Assembly: GCA_038887515.1 (NCBI GenBank)
Contig: JAWAKK010000002.1
Span: 1-64,000 of the forward strand
DNA: 64,000 bases
Direction of reading: 5' to 3'
From: Candidatus Nezhaarchaeales archaeon
Lineage (GTDB): Archaea > Thermoproteota > Methanomethylicia > Nezhaarchaeales > WYZ-LMO8
Made by a program: the position numbers and the translations under genes. A model generated the notes under the pieces. That model did not search any database. It saw only the letters and a program-made list of their open reading frames with translations, and was not told where the DNA came from. The number at the start of each line of letters is the position of its first letter. Position 1 is the stretch's first letter. Shown here piece by piece: positions 5,981 through 45,240 of this stretch.

Positions 5981-6176
5981 GATCGCCTTACGCACGAGGC
6001 TAAAGGAGCTTACGTTAGAGCTATGCCAATCAGTAAGTTGAGGCCCTAGTAGACGTAGCTGAGATAGTTGCGTCCCTAGCAGTCTGAGAAGGCAGGACTT
6101 ATAACCAGGTAACTCATAGTCGTCGATGGGAGTATACTGTCCAGTAAATCTCGCCTGGACAAAAACGTCGATAGAA

Positions 6177-6917
6177 ATGGTTGATATTATGATTGCAGTC
6201 AAAGTCTCCGGCCTAGTTAAGCACTTTGGAAGTACAACGGTCCTTAAAGGTGTGAGTTTTCAAGTTAAAGAGGGCGAAATCTTCGGTTTGATAGGGCCTA
6301 ATGGCGCTGGCAAGACTACTACGCTTAGGATTTTAGCTACTTTGCTTACCCCATCTGAAGGAATCGTCGAGATCTTCGGCCTCAATGTCGTAGAGAAAGC
6401 CGATGAAGTCAGAAAGATCATCAGTTATTTACCCGAAGAGGCCGGGGTTTATGCTAGACTTAGTGGGCTTGAATACTTGGAGTTCATGGCTAGCCTTTAC
6501 GCCAAGGACGCCAAGGAACTTAGAGAAATGGTAAGCGAAGGAGTGAGCATAGCTGGTTTAGGAGAGAAAATTAGGAATAGGGCTGCGACTTACAGTAAAG
6601 GTATGAAGAGGAGGCTCTTAATAGCTAGAACGTTGATGATTAAACCTAAGCTGGCAATCCTTGACGAGCCGACGAGCGGTCTAGACGTAGTTCACGCCTA
6701 CCACATAAGAAGGATTATAAAGGACTACGTTAAACGACATGGATTGACCGTCGTCCTGTCAAGCCACAACATGTTCGAGGTCGACTTCCTATGCGATAGA
6801 GTTGCGCTAATCCACGACGGCCAAATAATCGCTGAAGGCTCTCCACGCGAACTCAAGGAGGCCTATGGAGCTGAAAACCTTGAAGAGGTCTTTGCGAAGG
6901 TGACTAAGATTGGTTAG
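6177..6917 (+). CDS. ABC-2 type exporter ATP-binding subunit
   Basis: GPNGAGKTT, YSKGM signature, ILDEPT; start likely 6177 or 6189 rather than 6126. Confidence 0.9.
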   Translation: MVDIMIAVKVSGLVKHFGSTTVLKGVSFQVKEGEIFGLIGPNGAGKTTTLRILATLLTPSEGIVEIFGLNVVEKADEVRKIISYLPEEAGVYARLSGLEYLEFMASLYAKDAKELREMVSEGVSIAGLGEKIRNRAATYSKGMKRRLLIARTLMIKPKLAILDEPTSGLDVVHAYHIRRIIKDYVKRHGLTVVLSSHNMFEVDFLCDRVALIHDGQIIAEGSPRELKEAYGAENLEEVFAKVTKIG

Positions 6918-19981: not shown

Positions 19982-20075
19982 GGTTGGAAGACGAAGTTAA
20001 AGTTTATAATACAGAGACTAGAAGTTAAGAGGTGCCTAACCCATGATTCGATGACAAGAGGGAGGTGAGGGATGC

Positions 20076-20528
20076 ATGTCTAAGCCGAGTTATGTTAGGT
20101 TTGAAGTGCCACCTGAACTGGCAGAAAAAGCCTATGAAGCGCTTAAAGTTGCTAGGGAGACGGGAAAGATAAAGAAGGGGACTAATGAGACCACAAAGGC
20201 CGTTGAAAGGGGCTTAGCGAAACTAGTCATTATAGCCGAAGACGTTGACCCCCCCGAGGTTGTAATGCACCTACCATTGCTTTGCGAAGAAAGAAAGATA
20301 CCTTATGTCTACGTGTCGAGCAAAGAGAAGTTAGGTCAAGCAGCTGGAATTGAAGTCAAGGCTGCGTCAGCGGCAATAATCGATCTAGGGCAGGCCAAGG
20401 ACCTAGTGGACGAGATAGTAACTAGAGTCAATGAAATAAAGGCTAAGGCCGGCTTGCCGACAACGCCTACAGTAACTGTAGAAGAGAGGGAGAAGCCAGC
20501 TAAGAGAGAGAAGAAGAGGGAGAAATAG
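20076..20528 (+). CDS. rpl7ae: 50S ribosomal protein L7Ae with C-terminal extension
   Basis: [33 protein letters not shown]. Confidence 0.97.
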
Positions 20529-20533
20529 TACGT

Positions 20534-20749
20534 TTAGCGCGGAGTAAGCTTCCTTGCTTCTCTTTCTGTTTCTCTAAGCATTAATATATCGCCAACCCTA
20601 ACAGGGCCTTTAACGTTTCTCGTAAGTATCCTACCTTTATCGGGGCCTTCAAGTATTCTACACCTAACTTGAATAACTTCTCCGGTAACCCCCGTTCTAC
20701 CAGTTATCTGTACAACTTCAGCCGGTGTAGCATCCATTGTAGAGCTCAT
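20534..20749 (-). CDS. rps28e: 30S ribosomal protein S28e (inverted relative to neighbours)
   Basis: [39 protein letters not shown]. Confidence 0.96.
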
Positions 20750-20865
20750 GAGCCTACACCTAGTAGATACGCCTTATAGGGCAAGTAGATAAATCTCTCT
20801 CTTAAATTTGTAGGTGGTAAGGGTTATAAGAAAGCCATGAAGATTCCTTAGAGGCGGTGTTTAGA

Positions 20866-21054
20866 ATGCTTAGAGCTACCACGTGTACATTCTGCGGAAG
20901 GAACGTTCCGATCGGAAGCGGGCTCATGTACGTTAAGAACGACGGAACCATACTGTACTTCTGTTCTAGTAAGTGCAAGAAGAACATGCTAGAGCTTGGG
21001 AGAAACCCTGCTAAGCTTAAATGGTGCCGAAAGACTAGGAAGGTGTACAAGTAA
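20866..21054 (+). CDS. rpl24e: 50S ribosomal protein L24e
   Basis: [25 protein letters not shown]; start 20857 or 20866. Confidence 0.95.
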
Positions 21055-21503
21055 TGGCTGTAGAGAGGACCCTGATAATAATCAAGCCCGGAGCCGTCGT
21101 AAGGGGGCTTGTAGGGGAAGTCCTCTCGAGACTTGAGAAGAAGGGGTTGAAGATCGTAGGCTTAAAGATGCTGAAGATGTCTAAGAAGAAAGCTGAAGAG
21201 CTATACTCTGTACATAAGGGTAAGCATTTCTATGAAGAGTTGATAAATTACATAACCTCCGCTCCCGTAGTTGTGGGAGTAGTTGAAGGCGACGATGCCA
21301 TTCAAGTAGTTAGAAGAGTTATAGGACCAACGAACCCCAAAGAAGCACCTCCAGGAACTATTAGGGGTGACTACGGAATATCAATAACCCAAAACATAAT
21401 CCACGCCTCAGATAGCATGGAGAGCGCTCAAAGAGAAGTGAAAATATTCTTTAGTGAAGAAGAGCTGTGCAGCTACTCGAGAGCTGACGAAGCCTGGCTC
21501 TAA
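21054..21503 (+). CDS. ndk: Nucleoside diphosphate kinase
   Basis: [24 protein letters not shown]. Confidence 0.96.
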
Positions 21504-21586
21504 CGTAAATCACTTTCAATCGACAGATTAAAGAGGTCCTCCCTCAGCTTTTCACCTATCTGGTTTATCTGAGGGAGGTGTTATAG

Positions 21587-23409
21587 GTGAGTATTACCTT
21601 AGAAAGTAAAAGGGTTAGATCGCCTATTCTATGCGTGCTAGGACACGTAGACGTTGGTAAAACGCTCCTGTTGGATAAGATAAGAGGGACTGCAACAATG
21701 TTTAGGGAAGTTGGGGCCATGATGTAGCGCCTCGAGGCGCTACGTGGCAAACCCAACATATTGGTGCGTCCTTCTTACCCTGGTCTGCCTTAGAGAAGAT
21801 TTGTGGTCCATTACTTAGGAGCGTAAAGGTCGAGATCAAGATACCTGGATTCTTGGTTATAGATACTCCAGGTCACGAGGTTTTCGTTAACTTGAGAAAG
21901 AGGGGAGGCTCCATAGCAGATATGGCTATCCTAGTCATAGACGTTCTTGAAGGGTTTGAGGAGATAACGTATGAGTGTTTAGAGATATTAAAGGCTAGGA
22001 GAACCCCGTTTGTAGTCGCTGCAAATAAGATAGATAAGATATCTGGGTGGGTCGAGAACGAGTTTAAACCGTTTACTGAAACAATAAAGCAACAGCCACT
22101 ACAGGTACAGAAGAGGCTCGACGAGCTCATATACGCTATCGTGGCTAAGTTTGAAGAGCTTGGTTTTCAGGCAGATAGATATGACCGGATAAGAGATTTC
22201 ACCAAGACTGTTGCTATAATACCTACTAGCGCTAAGACTGGGGAAGGGATACCTGACTTACTACTAGTCCTAGCAGGCTTATCTCAGAGGTATATGTTGA
22301 AGAGGCTTTTCGTTAAAGAAGATGTAGCTAAGGGAGTTGTGTTAGAGTGTAGGGAAATGCCTGGCCTAGGCACAGTAGCCGACGTTATAATTTACGACGG
22401 CATACTAAGGAAGGATGACGTCATTGTGCTTGGTGGGCTCAAGGGGCCCATTGCGACTAAAATTAGGAACATTCTAATGCCTAAACCTATGGATGAAATG
22501 AGGGACCCGGAAGACAAGTTTAAGAGCGTTGATGAGGTCGTAGCCGCCGCTGGCATTAGAATTGTGGCTCAAGGCCTTGACGAAGCCGTAGCCGGTAGCC
22601 CACTGTTTTCAGCCAAAAGCCAGGCTGACGTGGACGCCGCCGTAAAGCAAGTCTTAGAGGAGATATCGAAGATAAGAATAACTACGGATACGATAGGGGT
22701 CGTCGTTAAAGCGGACACTCTAGGTTCCCTCGAGGCTCTGACCTTAAAGTTGCAGGAGCACAACGTCCCCGTGAGGTTAGCCGATGTAGGAAAGATATCG
22801 AAGAGGGACGTTGTAGAGGCTGCGATAACGAAGGAGAGAGATCCTTATCACGGCGTAATCTTAGCTTTCAACGTAGGCGTAAACCCCGACGCTGAACAAG
22901 AGATAGAGAGCAGAGGCATACCAGTCTTTAAGAGCAACGTAATTTATAGGCTCATAGAGGACTACTTGGATTGGGTTAAGAAGAAGATGGAAGAAGAGCG
23001 TAGGCAAACACTGTCCTCTCTCATATTGCCCGGTAAAGCGCAGATATTGAGGGGTTACGTCTTTAGGAGAAGCGACCCAGCAATAGTTGGAGTTGAAGTT
23101 TTGGCTGGAAGACTTAAGCCGGGATATCCTCTGATGAACGCCAAGGGGAGGAAGCTTGGAACGATAATGCAAATACAGGAGCAGAAGAAGAGCTTGAACG
23201 AGGCGGTTGCCGGACACGCGGTTGCAATATCGATTAAAGGGGACGTAATGGTTGGCAGGCAAATAGACGAAGGAGACTACTTGTATGTTGATGTACCCTT
23301 AGAACACATCCGAATACTAAAGGAGAAGTTTTCAAATCAACTATCAAAAGAAGAGCTAGAGTTACTCGACGAGATAGCGAAAATAAAGAAGACGGCTGGA
23401 AGTTATTAA
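21587..23409 (+). CDS. infB: Translation initiation factor aIF5B (IF-2), two exons: join(21587..21721,21751..23409), 597 aa
   Basis: Exon 1 from GTG 21587 (SD GGAGGTG) encodes [25 protein letters not shown]...REVGAM; exon 2 continues [10 protein letters not shown]...IDTPGHE...NKID in another frame. Confidence 0.93.
21722..21750 (+). other. 29-nt BHB-type intron in aIF5B mRNA (predicted)
   Basis: GTTGGG/CCCAAC exon helix, GCCA/TGGC 4-bp central helix, TG^A and AA^A 3-nt bulges, TGTAGCGCC/GGCGCTACG intron stem; removal restores the frame. Confidence 0.9.
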
Positions 23410-23476
23410 TTAATTCAATGACCTCAAAGTTTTTAGCTAAGCCAAAGAGTGAGTTCACGCTAAGGGGTGAAAGAAA

Positions 23477-23845
23477 ACGCCCGAGTTCAAAGTAGTAGTA
23501 TCCGATCCGTTGACTGGTAAGGCTCAGCAGATAACTGTTAGTGGGCCTCAGGCTAACGCGTTGATTGGATTAAGGATAGGTGATGAAATTGACGGCACGC
23601 TCATTGGAATGCCCGGCGTTAGACTCGTGATTAGAGGTGGAAGCGATAGGAGCGGGGCACCAATGAGGCCAGATCTTCCCGGCCCCGTCAAACGAAGGCT
23701 ATTGCTTAGCCAAGGCCCCGGCTTTAGGCCAGAGAGGAAGGGTCTAAGAAAGAGGAAGCTTGTCCGAGGAAATACTATTTCAGAGGACATAGTTCAAATA
23801 AACATGGCCATAAAGCGCGAAGAAAAGGTGGCTGAAAGTGGCTGA
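23477..23845 (+). CDS. rps6e: 30S ribosomal protein S6e, probable ACG start
   Basis: [37 protein letters not shown]; conserved N-terminus lies upstream of the first TTG (23510). Confidence 0.9.
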
Positions 23846-25123
23846 AGACTGGGTAAAGAGACAGGCCGAACTAAATATCGGTACGACGGGCCACGTGGAT
23901 CACGGCAAGACTACCCTTACTTGGGCACTCTCAGGCGTTTGGGCTTCAAAGCACTCTGAAGAGCTTAGGCGAGGGATAACACTTAGGCTCGGTTATGCGG
24001 ACACCACTGTCCTGAAGTGTCCTAAGTGTCCGCCACCTCAGTGTTATACTACCTACGCGCTATCTGGGACGAGATGCAAGCACTGTGGATCTGACCTCGA
24101 GTTCGTGAGAAAGTATTCCTTCGTAGACTGTCCTGGACACGAGATTGCACGCCCATAATGGGCGTGCAACGTGATATGTTAATGGCTACGATGCTTGCTG
24201 GAGCAACGCTATTTGACGGCGCCATACTCGTGATCGATGCTACAGTTCCATGTCCTCAACCCCAGACGCGGGAGCACTTGAAGGCACTTGAAGTGCTGGG
24301 AGTAAAGAACGTCGTGGTAGTGCAGAATAAGATTGAAGTAGTCTCAAAGGAAAAGGTCGTCGAGAACTATCGCCAGATAAAGGAGTTTTTAAAAGATACA
24401 GCGCTACGTGATGCGCCTATAGTCCCGATATCGGCACTCCATAGAGCAAACCTTGATGTCTTAATAGAGACCATCGAGAAGACCATTCCTACTCCAAAGA
24501 GAGATACATCCAAGCCTCTAAGAGCATTGATAGCCAGGTCATTCGACATAAATAAGCCTGGAACCCCTCCGGAGGAACTAAAGGGCGGGGTCTTAGGAGG
24601 ATCTATAATTCAAGGGATTGCAAGGGTTAGCGACGAGATAGAGATAAGGCCTGGAATTAGGATTGAGAAGGGCGGGAAAGTAGAGTACGAGCCCCTATTC
24701 ACTGAGTTAGTGAGCTTAAAAGCTGGAGACGTAGACGTAGAGGAAGCTAGACCTGGAGGTCTAATAGGGTTTGGCACTAGCCTCGATCCTTCAATAACGA
24801 AGGCTGACTCGCTTGCTGGCAGCGTTATAGGTAAGCCGGGCACATTGCCTCCAACACTTTTCGAATTAAGTTTGGAAGTTGTTCTATTTGAAAAGGCCGT
24901 TGGGACTGTCGAGATGGTGAAGGTTGAAAGCATAAAGCCCAACGAGGTTTTAATGATAAACGTCGGAACAGCTACGACCCTAGGGACTGTGACTAAGTCT
25001 TCAAAGGATATCGTATCATTGAAGTTACGAAGACCCGTCTGCGCTGAAGCTGGAACTAGAGTAGCTGTGAGCCGACAAATAGCTAGTAGGTTTAGGCTAA
25101 TAGGGTACGGAGTTATAAGGTGA
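23838..25123 (+). CDS. eif2g: Translation initiation factor aIF2 gamma, two exons: join(23838..24143,24176..25123), 417 aa
   Basis: Exon 1: [29 protein letters not shown], Zn knuckle, SFVDCPGHE; exon 2: [34 protein letters not shown]. Confidence 0.93.
24144..24175 (+). other. 32-nt BHB-like (relaxed exon helix) intron in aIF2gamma mRNA (predicted)
   Basis: CACG/CGTG central helix, AG^A and AT^A bulges, TTGCACGCCCA/TGGGCGTGCAA intron stem; removal gives DCPGHE-MLMATML. Confidence 0.85.
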
Positions 25124-25141
25124 TTATGGAGGGGCTTAGAT

Positions 25142-25537
25142 ATAGTTAAGGTACTTTTCGACACGAACTTCTTGATGGCGATGTTCGAGAGACCCGTAGA
25201 TGTGGTCAAGAGAGTTGAGGAGGTGCTCGAAGTAAGTGTTGAGCCTGTAATCTTAAAGTCGCAGATCCGCGAACTTGAGAATATCGCTAACTCCGATAAG
25301 AGGCTGAAGGCTTCGAGGACGGCTCGTGCGGTCCTACAGTGCATTAAAGACAGGTTTAGCGTAGTTGAGGATTTTGGAGGAGTCGTCGACGACGTCCTGC
25401 TCGAAGTCTCTAGACGTGAGGGTTACATCGTAGCAACGAACGATAGAGAGCTTCGACGGAAGCTTCGGAGCAACGGTATAAGCGTCATATACTTGAGGAG
25501 TGATGGGAAAGTAGAAATTGAAGGTTTTCAACCTTAG
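25142..25537 (+). CDS. PIN-domain protein (Utp24/Fcf1-like) usually found after aIF2gamma, probable ATA start
   Basis: VKVLFDTNFL...ELE...VDD...VATNDRELR; the catalytic DTN motif lies upstream of the first canonical start (25172). Confidence 0.85.
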   Translation: MVKVLFDTNFLMAMFERPVDVVKRVEEVLEVSVEPVILKSQIRELENIANSDKRLKASRTARAVLQCIKDRFSVVEDFGGVVDDVLLEVSRREGYIVATNDRELRRKLRSNGISVIYLRSDGKVEIEGFQP

Positions 25538-25621
25538 CAAGCTACAGAAAGTTTAATACAAAAAGCTTGAGGTTTCTAAACTTACGCAATACTCCAAGTT
25601 TAAGCTCACGGTGAAGAATCC

Positions 25622-26200
25622 ATGTACTACTTAGTCACCATGTCAGATGAAGTTAGGATTCCACCAAGTAGGTTTAACGAGAAGCTCGAAAACGTTGCTT
25701 TTGATAGTTTGAAGTCCATGTATGAAGGAATAGTCATAAAGGGCGTTGGATTGGTAGTCGCAATACTTGGAGTAAAGGTTTCCCCCGTTGGTAGGATATT
25801 GCCGGGCGACGGCGCAACATATCACAAGGTTAAGTTTGACGCTCTCGTCTACCTACCGGTTGAAGGGGAAGTGGTTGAAGGGGAAGTAGTAGATATAGTA
25901 GACTTTGGAGCGTTCATCAGGATAGGGCCCATAGATGGGCTTGTACACGTCTCGCAGGTAGCCGATGATTTTATATCATTCGATAAGAAGAAGGGAGAAC
26001 TTTTGTGTAAGCAGACGAGGAGGAAACTGTCTAAAGGAGATGTTGTAAGAGCTAGGATTGTAACCATTAGCGTAAGTGGTATGAGATTAAATGAAGTCAA
26101 GGTAGGCCTAACCATGAGGCAGCCATTCCTAGGAAAGATAGAGTGGATAAACGAAGACCTCAAGAAGGAGAAGGCTCCAACTAGGGTGAAGGAGAAGTGA
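25622..26200 (+). CDS. rpoE1: RNA polymerase subunit E' (Rpo7)
   Basis: VRIPP, GDGATY, FGAFIRIGPIDGLVHVSQ, LTMRQPFLGK. Confidence 0.96.
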   Translation: MYYLVTMSDEVRIPPSRFNEKLENVAFDSLKSMYEGIVIKGVGLVVAILGVKVSPVGRILPGDGATYHKVKFDALVYLPVEGEVVEGEVVDIVDFGAFIRIGPIDGLVHVSQVADDFISFDKKKGELLCKQTRRKLSKGDVVRARIVTISVSGMRLNEVKVGLTMRQPFLGKIEWINEDLKKEKAPTRVKEK

Positions 26201-43614: not shown

Positions 43615-44406
43615 CTGATAGACGTAAGAGGTTTAGTTGTTAGGTATGGCTGGAGGAGGGAGCCTGTTCTTAGGGGCGTAAGCGTCGTATTTGATGGTAA
43701 GCACCTCCTCCTAGGCCCGAACGGCTCAGGTAAAACGACGCTCTTCAGGGCGCTGACAGGCTTAGTCCCAGTAGCATCTGGTGACATCTTAATTGATGGC
43801 GTAAGCATCGACAAGATATACGGGAGGCCTGGACTCGTAGCTGCGAACCTAACCGAGATCTATAATCTCCTACACCTAAGCGCTTATGATCACCTCAAAG
43901 TCTTCATGGATTTAATGGGCGGTGAGCTAGATCATGCACTCCAGGTATTGGAGGATCTGGGCTTTAGCACTGAGGTTCTAAGAAGGAGGACTTGGGAGCT
44001 CTCAGCTGGTCAGAGAAAAGCCTTTGCAACAGCCATTGCCTTAGCCTCCGGCGCCAAGCACATTCTTCTAGACGAGCCTTTTGAGCAGCTCGATCCTGCT
44101 AGGAAGAGCATAATGTTAAGGAGGGTAGCTGAGCACAGCGGTGTAGTAGTATTGAACACCCATGAGACTTGGCTCATCAATTCAATGTGGAACTGGAAGG
44201 TACACTTCATCTTTGAGGGTAGGGTTTATGGTCCACTAGAGGCCAGGGATCTGATGGATGCAAGCCTAGTGTCTGGCGATGTCGAGGATGCGCTATTAAG
44301 GTTTGAGACCTCCGGAAGGATCTTTAGTATACTACCAGGTGGAAGGGGCCAACCGTTGACGAACTTGGTAACCCTTGATAGGATCTACGAGCTAACGTTG
44401 GGGTAA
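43615..44406 (+). CDS. ABC transporter ATP-binding protein, probable CTG start
   Basis: Frame open upstream of 43906 through Walker A GPNGSGKTT to CTG-ATA-GAC (IDVRGL); LSAGQ, LLDEP. Confidence 0.8.
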   Translation: MIDVRGLVVRYGWRREPVLRGVSVVFDGKHLLLGPNGSGKTTLFRALTGLVPVASGDILIDGVSIDKIYGRPGLVAANLTEIYNLLHLSAYDHLKVFMDLMGGELDHALQVLEDLGFSTEVLRRRTWELSAGQRKAFATAIALASGAKHILLDEPFEQLDPARKSIMLRRVAEHSGVVVLNTHETWLINSMWNWKVHFIFEGRVYGPLEARDLMDASLVSGDVEDALLRFETSGRIFSILPGGRGQPLTNLVTLDRIYELTLG

Positions 44407-44412
44407 GCGGTT

Positions 44413-45240
44413 TTGACGGCTTATCTTAAATACAAGCTTAAGGAGCTGCTCACCAACGTCGAGCTTCTGGGTTGGTCGATAGGCTTCATAGAGTTCTGGG
44501 TCTTCATGTGGGTTTTCGTTTTCACGCCGGTATCCATGGTAGACGAATGGACCAAGGTTTTTCTTCAGGTGAATACTGGATTAGCGTATAGCTTCCTCGG
44601 CGTCCTGTCAATGGCGGCGGCTGGAGCAGGGCTTACGGGAAGCATTTACCGCGGCTCAATACCTACGAGGTATATAACCAAGTTCTCTAGGCTCGGACCA
44701 GCTCTCTACCTGCTAGAGGACTTCCTGGCAAGCCTAGTGGCGATCCTCGTCTATGTCTTGGTTATTTTCGTCTCGGTCATCGGCCTATCGTATGCGAGGT
44801 GGGGCGTCATCGCGTTACCGTACAGCCCTGTTGGGATCTTCGCTGGGCTCCTAATGGCAGCAGTAACCTTCTACTGGCTATCGTATGCGTTTTCCCTCCC
44901 AATAGTCGTAACTAAGAGGATTAGGGCTCTAACGATGGCGTCTTATATGCCCCTAATCTTAGGCTTCATAGCTTACTCTCAACTCTGGATAGACTTCGGC
45001 TCTGCCGTATACTTTGTTCCAGTGGTTCCGCTTATAGGTCTCCTAGCATACCATGGAGCTGGAATGTATCCTCCAACAGGTGCATACCTAGGTTGGCTAT
45101 ACAGCGATAAGCTATATCAAGCCTTAAACCTAAGGCTAGCTGCAGTCTCTTCCATCACTTGGATTGCAATTCTAATAGTGATTTCCATGCTGCTGTTGAG
45201 GAAGAGTAGAGGCGTATCCATCGAAGAGATCAAACTATAA
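44413..45240 (+). CDS. ABC transporter permease
   Basis: Multi-TM protein directly after the ATPase. Confidence 0.75.
   Translation: MTAYLKYKLKELLTNVELLGWSIGFIEFWVFMWVFVFTPVSMVDEWTKVFLQVNTGLAYSFLGVLSMAAAGAGLTGSIYRGSIPTRYITKFSRLGPALYLLEDFLASLVAILVYVLVIFVSVIGLSYARWGVIALPYSPVGIFAGLLMAAVTFYWLSYAFSLPIVVTKRIRALTMASYMPLILGFIAYSQLWIDFGSAVYFVPVVPLIGLLAYHGAGMYPPTGAYLGWLYSDKLYQALNLRLAAVSSITWIAILIVISMLLLRKSRGVSIEEIKL

Follow-up and report, generated by a model that had tools for sequence, protein, structure and literature searches.

The locus considered here raises the question of how a gene for the archaeal translation initiation factor aIF5B, whose reading frame is broken near its beginning, can specify a complete protein. 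The gene lies within a stretch of 64,000 nucleotides (nt) of a hot-spring archaeon (positions 1 to 64,000 of the forward strand of contig JAWAKK010000002.1 in the Candidatus Nezhaarchaeales assembly GCA_038887515.1), which is referred to below, in its whole length, as the window, and which forms part of a Nezhaarchaeales-like metagenome-assembled genome (MAG) of 1.29 Mb that is 94% complete. On the plus strand, the frame opened by GTG at 21587 terminates at TAG 21725-21727, and a second piece of aIF5B, starting TQHIGASF, is open in a different frame from 21751 as far as its stop codon, 23407-23409. The factor is essential in characterised systems, and the genome contains one locus for it. The answer argued for in the present work, from the comparison of sequences, is that a 29-nt archaeal bulge-helix-bulge (BHB) intron very probably interrupts the coding sequence of this single gene and is removed from its messenger RNA (mRNA) by splicing.

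The frame break and the structure that spans it

Deletion of the 29 nt from 21722 to 21750 restores the frame and joins 45 codons to 552, giving 597 in all. The break point, 21721/21751, falls between a methionine codon and the switch I threonine codon. When the two pieces are compared with the NCBIfam aIF5B model NF003078, the N-terminal piece matches positions 5-44 and the C-terminal piece positions 45-591, so that they abut at 44/45; at 770.9 bits, the C-terminal piece alone clears the cut-off of 468. The GTPase motifs are distributed over both pieces, with GHVDVGKT (G1) in exon 1 and both TQHIGA (switch I) and DTPGH (G3) in exon 2. Exon 1, which is preceded by a Shine-Dalgarno-like site at 21574-21579, shares 90-93% amino acid identity with the same piece of relatives in the same genus, and the first in-frame start codon downstream of the break is TTG 21853.

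The bases around the break take up the canonical BHB geometry, in which two 3-nt bulges on opposite strands are separated by a central helix (H) of 4 base pairs (bp), with an outer helix (h) formed between the two exons on one side and a hairpin of the intron itself (h') on the other (Table 1). This hBHBh' fold had been proposed in an initial annotation of the window, made from the letters alone, and RNAfold returns it for positions 21700-21770 at -30.1 kcal/mol (z = -3.35), a stability that is reached by 0 of 200 shuffled sequences. A search of positions 20000-26000 with the Rfam 15 covariance models gave no match at E <= 1. The coordinates of aIF5B in the initial annotation, its placing of the frame break at the TAG, its helices and its bulges were all confirmed. 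Its identification of the structure as a substrate of the splicing endonuclease EndA, with the cut register of that enzyme, agrees with the canonical form of the motif, with the restoration of the frame by the cut and with the contiguity of intron-less orthologues at the junction, while the 597-residue product and the insertion just before the switch I threonine, which it had also put forward, are borne out by the abutting model positions and by the beginning of exon 2 at TQHIGA.

The mechanism proposed for the removal of the insert is as follows. In the pre-mRNA, exon bases 21710-21719 would pair with the last four paired bases of the intron and with exon bases 21752-21757, and the intron's own hairpin would stack below, so that the two 3-nt bulges would be presented 4 bp apart. 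A two-subunit splicing endonuclease of the (alpha-beta)2 type would then cut each bulge between its second and third bases, and the ligase RtcB would join the exons and probably circularise the intron. The spliced mRNA would be translated into aIF5B of 597 residues, and the unspliced mRNA would be read to a stop after 46 codons.

Genes for both enzymes are present in the genome (designated G000 below, with main contigs C1-C4), and both lie outside the window, as the initial annotation had stated. EndA (PF01974) is matched at C1:132718-132975 (106.8 bits) and at C3:63691-63954 (70.9 bits), and the two paralogues match the C-terminal, catalytic half and the N-terminal half of the fused enzyme model NF006795, which indicates that the EndA of this genome is probably of the (alpha-beta)2 type. 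RtcB is encoded at C1:94319-95629 (600.8 bits). Introns are predicted by ARAGORN in 18 of the 46 transfer RNA (tRNA) genes, so that the splicing pathway appears to be in heavy use.

Same-site inserts in relatives and the case against chance

The C-terminal part of aIF5B was searched for in 40 relatives, and 38 of these have one strong locus. Both pieces were mapped onto 30 loci, the window's own included, and six further relatives were added. At 19 of the 30 loci an insert of 27, 29, 30, 31 or 33 nt lies exactly between the ...GCC ATG and ACC CA. codons, and the other 11 are insert-free and contiguous across the predicted junction; of the six added relatives, two lack an insert and four have one (22, 22, 25 and 27 nt). 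In 23 of the 36 genomes the same codon boundary is thus occupied by an insert, 22-33 nt long, which is missing from the other 13, and the intron-less alleles for which the initial annotation had suggested aligning related genomes do exist. All ten loci of the window's family have the insert, as do 1/1 and 4/4 loci of the remaining two families of its order. In f5, a second family of the same class, eight of the ten genomes examined have it, and in four further families it was not found in any of the 11 genomes examined.

Each of the 19 aligned inserts either contains a stop in frame or causes a frameshift. Metagenome contigs were scanned with a pattern, and the 54 stretches recovered contained 48 distinct inserts, 12 of which were unrelated chance matches in other open reading frames (ORFs) and were dropped. 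The remaining 36, which lie in an aIF5B context and are 25-37 nt long, include several that duplicate the compared genomes, and every one of them likewise has a stop or a frameshift. The flags for an internal stop that were raised for aIF5B of genome G021 and for MtnA of genomes G011 and G012 proved to be natural gene ends and not further introns.

The codons at the junction bear on the history of the intron. All intron-bearing alleles encode R/K-E-V-G-A-M with helix-forming codons, and the 11 intron-less loci encode REPGTM or REAGGI (in one case KEPGTM). Two intron-less genera of f5, L144 (G022) and L145 (G024), whose sequences are likewise contiguous at the predicted junction, still encode REVGAM, one of them with nearly identical codons, and this retention of the sequence indicates that the intron was probably lost precisely in both. 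In a maximum-likelihood tree of the C-terminal part, which is unrooted, is drawn from a single gene, leaves out the four extra f5 genera and keeps every other row, including one (L034) that extends past its stop, coded as X, the presence and absence of the insert are parted by one branch with support 92/85, equivalent to one change. Judged from the genomes compared, the aIF5B intron is old, being present throughout one Nezhaarchaeales-like order and in most examined genera of a second family, and it is apparently lost with precision in two genera.

Covariation was computed on the 19 aligned alleles, for which the alignment is unambiguous. In the structure given by the initial annotation, 94.7% of the cells are paired, as against 80.4% in shuffles, and none of 500 shuffles reaches the observed value; when the partners are slid along the same alignment, only 31-39% are paired. 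The paired fraction is 96.5% in the outer helix, 98.7% in the central helix and 91.6% in the intron stem. Double changes, which affect both sides of a pair, are found in eight of the nine intron-stem pairs, and the intron stems of different clades have no common sequence, while the outer and central helices, being made of codons, hardly vary. The consensus structure that RNAalifold computes from the alleles is, without prompting, the same hBHBh' fold.

Several observations weigh against the interpretation of the insert as a spliced intron. The strict BHB motif is not rare: a scan of the four main contigs on both strands, with an outer helix of at least 4 bp, a central helix of 4 bp and a stem of at least 8 bp, gives 3 matches in the real genome and 1, 2, 3 and 1 in four Markov-simulated genomes. 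A looser genome-wide scan, in which a BHB motif had to merge two ORFs (central helix 4 bp, stem at least 4 bp, intron 12-160 nt, at least 40 open codons on each side), gives 6192 matches; four controls in which the 3' cut was displaced give 6145-6366. The minimum-energy register of RNAfold has a central helix of 5 bp (including U21720-G21744) and a stem of 8 bp, and the cut register of that helix would not restore the aIF5B frame. The compared genomes are relatives, so that the shuffle statistics overstate their independence. The DNA support from run X1 probably comes from the same sample as the assembly, and so does not represent an independent one. Finally, neither a spliced junction nor an excised circle was observed: no RNA data set was listed as containing the stretch, and two metatranscriptomes from the same study, of which about 3% of each run was read, have 0 reads on 21400-25200, a result that speaks neither for nor against splicing.

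The looser scan, which likewise has no enrichment over its controls when stricter cuts are applied, has little power, and it was dropped as a means of counting introns since its hits are at the level of the controls; its lack of enrichment means that the genome is not full of such introns. What lifts the aIF5B intron above chance is that its motif coincides exactly with the point at which the frame of an essential, single-copy gene breaks, and that the motif is conserved, with covariation. The two registers of the central helix have equal numbers of pairs, and it is the 4-bp register that is conserved in the relatives; the alternative 5-bp register is not conserved, alignment pair 16-41 being standard in 17 of 19 rows. 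With regard to the DNA, the window agrees in every base over 21400-25200 with a Logan contig (depth 19), an independent assembly of the likely source run, which includes the 29 nt, and the relatives' genomes and the metagenome contigs are separate assemblies with an insert at the same site, so that the insert is not an artefact of one assembly. Both observations speak against the assembly error that the initial annotation had raised as an objection to its own proposal; its other objection combined a lack of spliced RNA with an intact copy of the gene elsewhere, and no second aIF5B locus was found in the genome.

Further inserts of the same kind in the genome

At least five mini-introns in protein genes are predicted in G000, namely those in aIF5B, aIF2-gamma, uS5, an MtnA-like gene and cbf5, a set that was absent from the initial annotation. 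The cut rule that applies to aIF5B also gives the orthologue junction in each of the four further genes. The insert in aIF2-gamma has its central helix at 24138-41/24170-73 and its bulges at 24142-44 and 24174-76, and its weak outer helix makes it a relaxed motif; its fold has an energy of -31.1 kcal/mol (z = -4.37). Its removal gives PGHE/MLMATM (a slash marks the junction here and below), with the junction directly after the PGHE of the G3 motif. Inserts of 31-35 nt are present at this site in 10 of 10 loci of the same family and in 0 of 20 others. At the uS5 site, 14 of 30 loci, which belong to two families of the order, have inserts (22-34 nt), and the stems covary. The MtnA-like insert is found in nine of 30 loci, all from the window's family, and the other 21 have an intact AAT or AAC codon. 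The cbf5 intron of G000 lies at the known crenarchaeal cbf5 site (PMC2738675).

Table 1. Positions of the predicted aIF5B intron, of its structural elements and exons, and of the companion introns predicted in the same genome. Single ranges are window positions.
Feature	Position	Strand	Description
aIF5B exon 1	21587..21721	+	45 codons, GTG start, P-loop GHVDVGKT
Outer exon-exon helix h, 5' strand	21710..21715	+	6 bp, pairs with 21752-21757
Central helix H, 5' strand, exon side	21716..21719	+	4 bp, pairs with 21745-21748
5' bulge	21720..21722	+	3 nt; predicted cut 21721/21722; junction matches intron-less orthologues
Predicted BHB intron of aIF5B	21722..21750	+	29 nt, from third base of 5' bulge to second base of 3' bulge; in-frame TAG 21725-21727
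Intron hairpin h'	21723..21744	+	9-bp stem 21723-31/21736-44, first pair U-G; 4-nt loop 21732-35
Central helix H, 3' strand, intron side	21745..21748	+	pairs with 21716-21719
3' bulge	21749..21751	+	3 nt; predicted cut 21750/21751; junction matches intron-less orthologues
Outer helix h, 3' strand	21752..21757	+	pairs with 21710-21715
aIF5B exon 2	21751..23409	+	552 codons plus stop; begins with switch I threonine (TQHIGA), contains DTPGH
aIF2-gamma exon 1	23838..24143	+	NF003077 positions 3-96
Predicted BHB-type intron of aIF2-gamma	24144..24175	+	32 nt; 11-bp stem; in-frame TAA 24156-58
aIF2-gamma exon 2	24176..25123	+	NF003077 positions 97-411
Predicted BHB intron of uS5	G000 C1:3238-3267 = L048:939-968	-	30 nt, QTD/AGE
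Predicted BHB intron of MtnA/eIF2B-like isomerase	G000 C1:10133-10162 = L049:834-863	-	30 nt, inside Asn codon of THCN/AG
Predicted BHB intron of cbf5	G000 C2:333915-333935 = L146:1547-1567	+	21 nt, 4-bp stem, in-frame TAA, splits catalytic Asp codon G/AT

In each of the five, the base that opens the intron, in the third place of the 5' bulge, is A, and so is the first base of the 3' bulge. The smaller contigs C5-C9 of G000 (6.6-12 kb) have a G+C content of 50-63%, as against 44-45% for C1-C4, and may be foreign to the bin.

The number of such introns was also approached by a scan for hairpin-type inserts with an in-frame stop, which gave eight candidates, compared with four and six in controls, and in which the motif is convincing only with stems of at least 9 bp. 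The scan missed the cbf5 intron with its 4-bp stem, so that the introns counted are a minimum. One further candidate, of 30 nt with a 9-bp stem at 44395-44424 on the plus strand of the window, was left uncounted as probably a chance match or an intercistronic hairpin. It spans the stop of an ORF for an ABC ATPase (43906-44406) and the start of an ORF for a membrane protein (44413-45240), and its removal would fuse both.

The distributions of the inserts are staggered across the genes, which suggests gains or losses at different depths. The sites themselves lie in switch I of aIF5B, after the DxxGH-E of G3 in aIF2-gamma, at QTD/AGE in uS5, at THCN/AG in MtnA and at the catalytic Asp of cbf5. 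A broader proposal, which goes well beyond the presence of the introns and is considered doubtful, is that the mini-introns form a lineage-specific set in the most conserved codons of translation-apparatus genes, through which the activity of EndA and RtcB would gate the build-up of the translation machinery; alternatively or additionally, the introns would have invaded conserved sites through reverse splicing and retro-integration. Repeated gains would fit the staggered distribution, the aIF5B insert being found in the order and the second family, that of uS5 in two families and those of aIF2-gamma and MtnA in one. If the proposal is true, gating by EndA and RtcB would be an archaeal counterpart of the IRE1/RtcB control of XBP1/HAC1.

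Competing explanations and known splicing systems

The broken frame of aIF5B can also be explained without splicing. The gene might be split or decaying, in which case the 29 nt would be an inserted palindromic element and the locus would yield a truncated C-terminal product or two polypeptides, or else would be a pseudogene or an assembly artefact. Public gene calls agree with such a view, in that the 14 public proteins at least 79% identical to the C-terminal part are all ORFs of 495-549 residues that have no P-loop, and none is of about 597 residues. It is nonetheless very improbable, because a genome that is 94% complete has no other aIF5B locus, because exon 1 with its P-loop stays 90-93% identical within the genus, because a product started at 21853 would be without G1 and switch I, and because the order and, beyond it, a second family retain the insert at a single site and with compensatory changes. 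The variant in which the insert is an artefact is countered by the same-site inserts in the relatives' genomes and in metagenome contigs, and by the Logan contig that reproduces the 29 nt. Gene callers miss exon 1 in this lineage, an annotation error that affects completeness estimates from marker genes, and alignments for phylogenomics, wherever Nezhaarchaeales-like MAGs or their relatives are concerned.

The gap in phage T4 gene 60, over which the ribosome passes, is marked by a stop codon at the gap and by a stable hairpin. The aIF5B locus has a stop one codon past the break and then a stable hairpin, and a programmed translational bypass or frameshift, in which the ribosome would hop the hairpin and resume at 21751 with no splicing involved, would make use of both; moreover, the cbf5 introns were themselves once confused with frameshifting (Yokobori et al., PMC2738675). 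The features that a bypass ought to display are, however, missing from the alleles, since matched take-off and landing codons are absent: the last codon of exon 1 is ATG, and none of the 19 inserts has an ATG at its 3' end. The gap may be as short as 22 or as long as 33 nt, yet the two 3-nt bulges and the 4-bp helix are constant, a geometry that EndA needs and a bypass does not, and the exon codons are constrained to pair. A bypass is accordingly regarded as highly unlikely.

There is equally slight probability in the idea that EndA cleavage serves mainly as a switch for degrading the mRNA, with ligation that is inefficient and dependent on conditions rather than constitutive, for although a BHB in the 5' untranslated region (UTR) of Haloferax HVO_1309 affects expression (PMC7714728) and the stops carried by all inserts would make the unspliced mRNA non-productive, a single-copy essential gene needs productive ligation as the main outcome, and the idea refines the explanation by a BHB intron instead of offering an alternative to it.

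The literature search brought up cbf5 as the sole archaeal gene described with an intron in its coding sequence. According to Yokobori et al. 2009, archaeal pre-mRNA splicing had been confirmed for no gene besides cbf5 (PMC2738675); according to Schwarz et al. 2020, the cbf5 mRNA intron was the only one reported besides their own case in a 5' UTR (PMC7714728); and the reference list of a 2025 paper on EndA structure cites only cbf5 papers (PMC12397907). The initial annotation, which had called cbf5 the established archaeal protein-gene intron, is in agreement with the first two of these. A search for introns in aIF5B, aIF2-gamma or uS5 found nothing in a literature coverage that excludes subscription journals and supplements, and one for introns in Nezhaarchaeota, Methanosuratincola or Verstraetearchaeota found nothing relevant.

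The inserts described here would extend the BHB introns known in archaeal coding sequences to an essential initiation factor and to three or more other genes. With covariation, precise-loss alleles and a staggered distribution all at hand, the gain and loss of archaeal mRNA introns becomes a tractable comparative problem. Moreover, these organisms would be unable to build their translation apparatus without EndA and RtcB.

The eukaryotic splicing of XBP1/HAC1 by IRE1 and RtcB resembles the process proposed for aIF5B in that a protein endonuclease and an RtcB-type ligation remove a short mRNA intron and change the reading frame, and it differs in its endonuclease, in its stem-loop recognition and in being regulated by stress. 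The eukaryotic system is mentioned in PMC13149111. The BHB intron in the 5' UTR of Haloferax volcanii HVO_1309 (Schwarz 2020, PMC7714728) is alike in that EndA acts on an mRNA, but it is the untranslated leader that is interrupted there, and the reading frame of an essential gene in aIF5B.

The BHB introns of archaeal tRNA and ribosomal RNA, which are processed by EndA and RtcB, have the same hBHBh' geometry, the same cut register and a similar size range, that of tRNA introns being 11-175 nt (PMC2738675). The substrate in aIF5B is by contrast an mRNA, which has no tRNA body to help recognition. The strands of the exon helix are here codons, so that the protein and the RNA structure constrain the same bases.

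The crenarchaeal cbf5 pre-mRNA intron, reportedly described by Watanabe in 2002 and by Yoshinari in 2006, is likewise short, lies within a coding sequence, forms a BHB or relaxed BHB motif and is cut between the second and third residues of the bulge; it is also tied to a hetero-oligomeric EndA, disrupts a codon of a catalytic motif and has been lost precisely in particular lineages. The aIF5B intron differs from it in its host gene, which encodes a GTPase, in its site, which is switch I, in its lineage, which is Nezhaarchaeales-like, and in its motif, which is fully canonical with a 6-bp outer helix between the exons. The splicing of cbf5 is known from cDNA and from in vitro cleavage, and that of aIF5B is deduced from sequence. 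Crenarchaeal cbf5 introns range in size from 16 nt upward (PMC2738675). On the evidence of the genomes compared, the aIF5B intron is real and conserved, it belongs to a lineage-specific set of mini-introns, and it joins a kind of intron that has until now been represented by cbf5.

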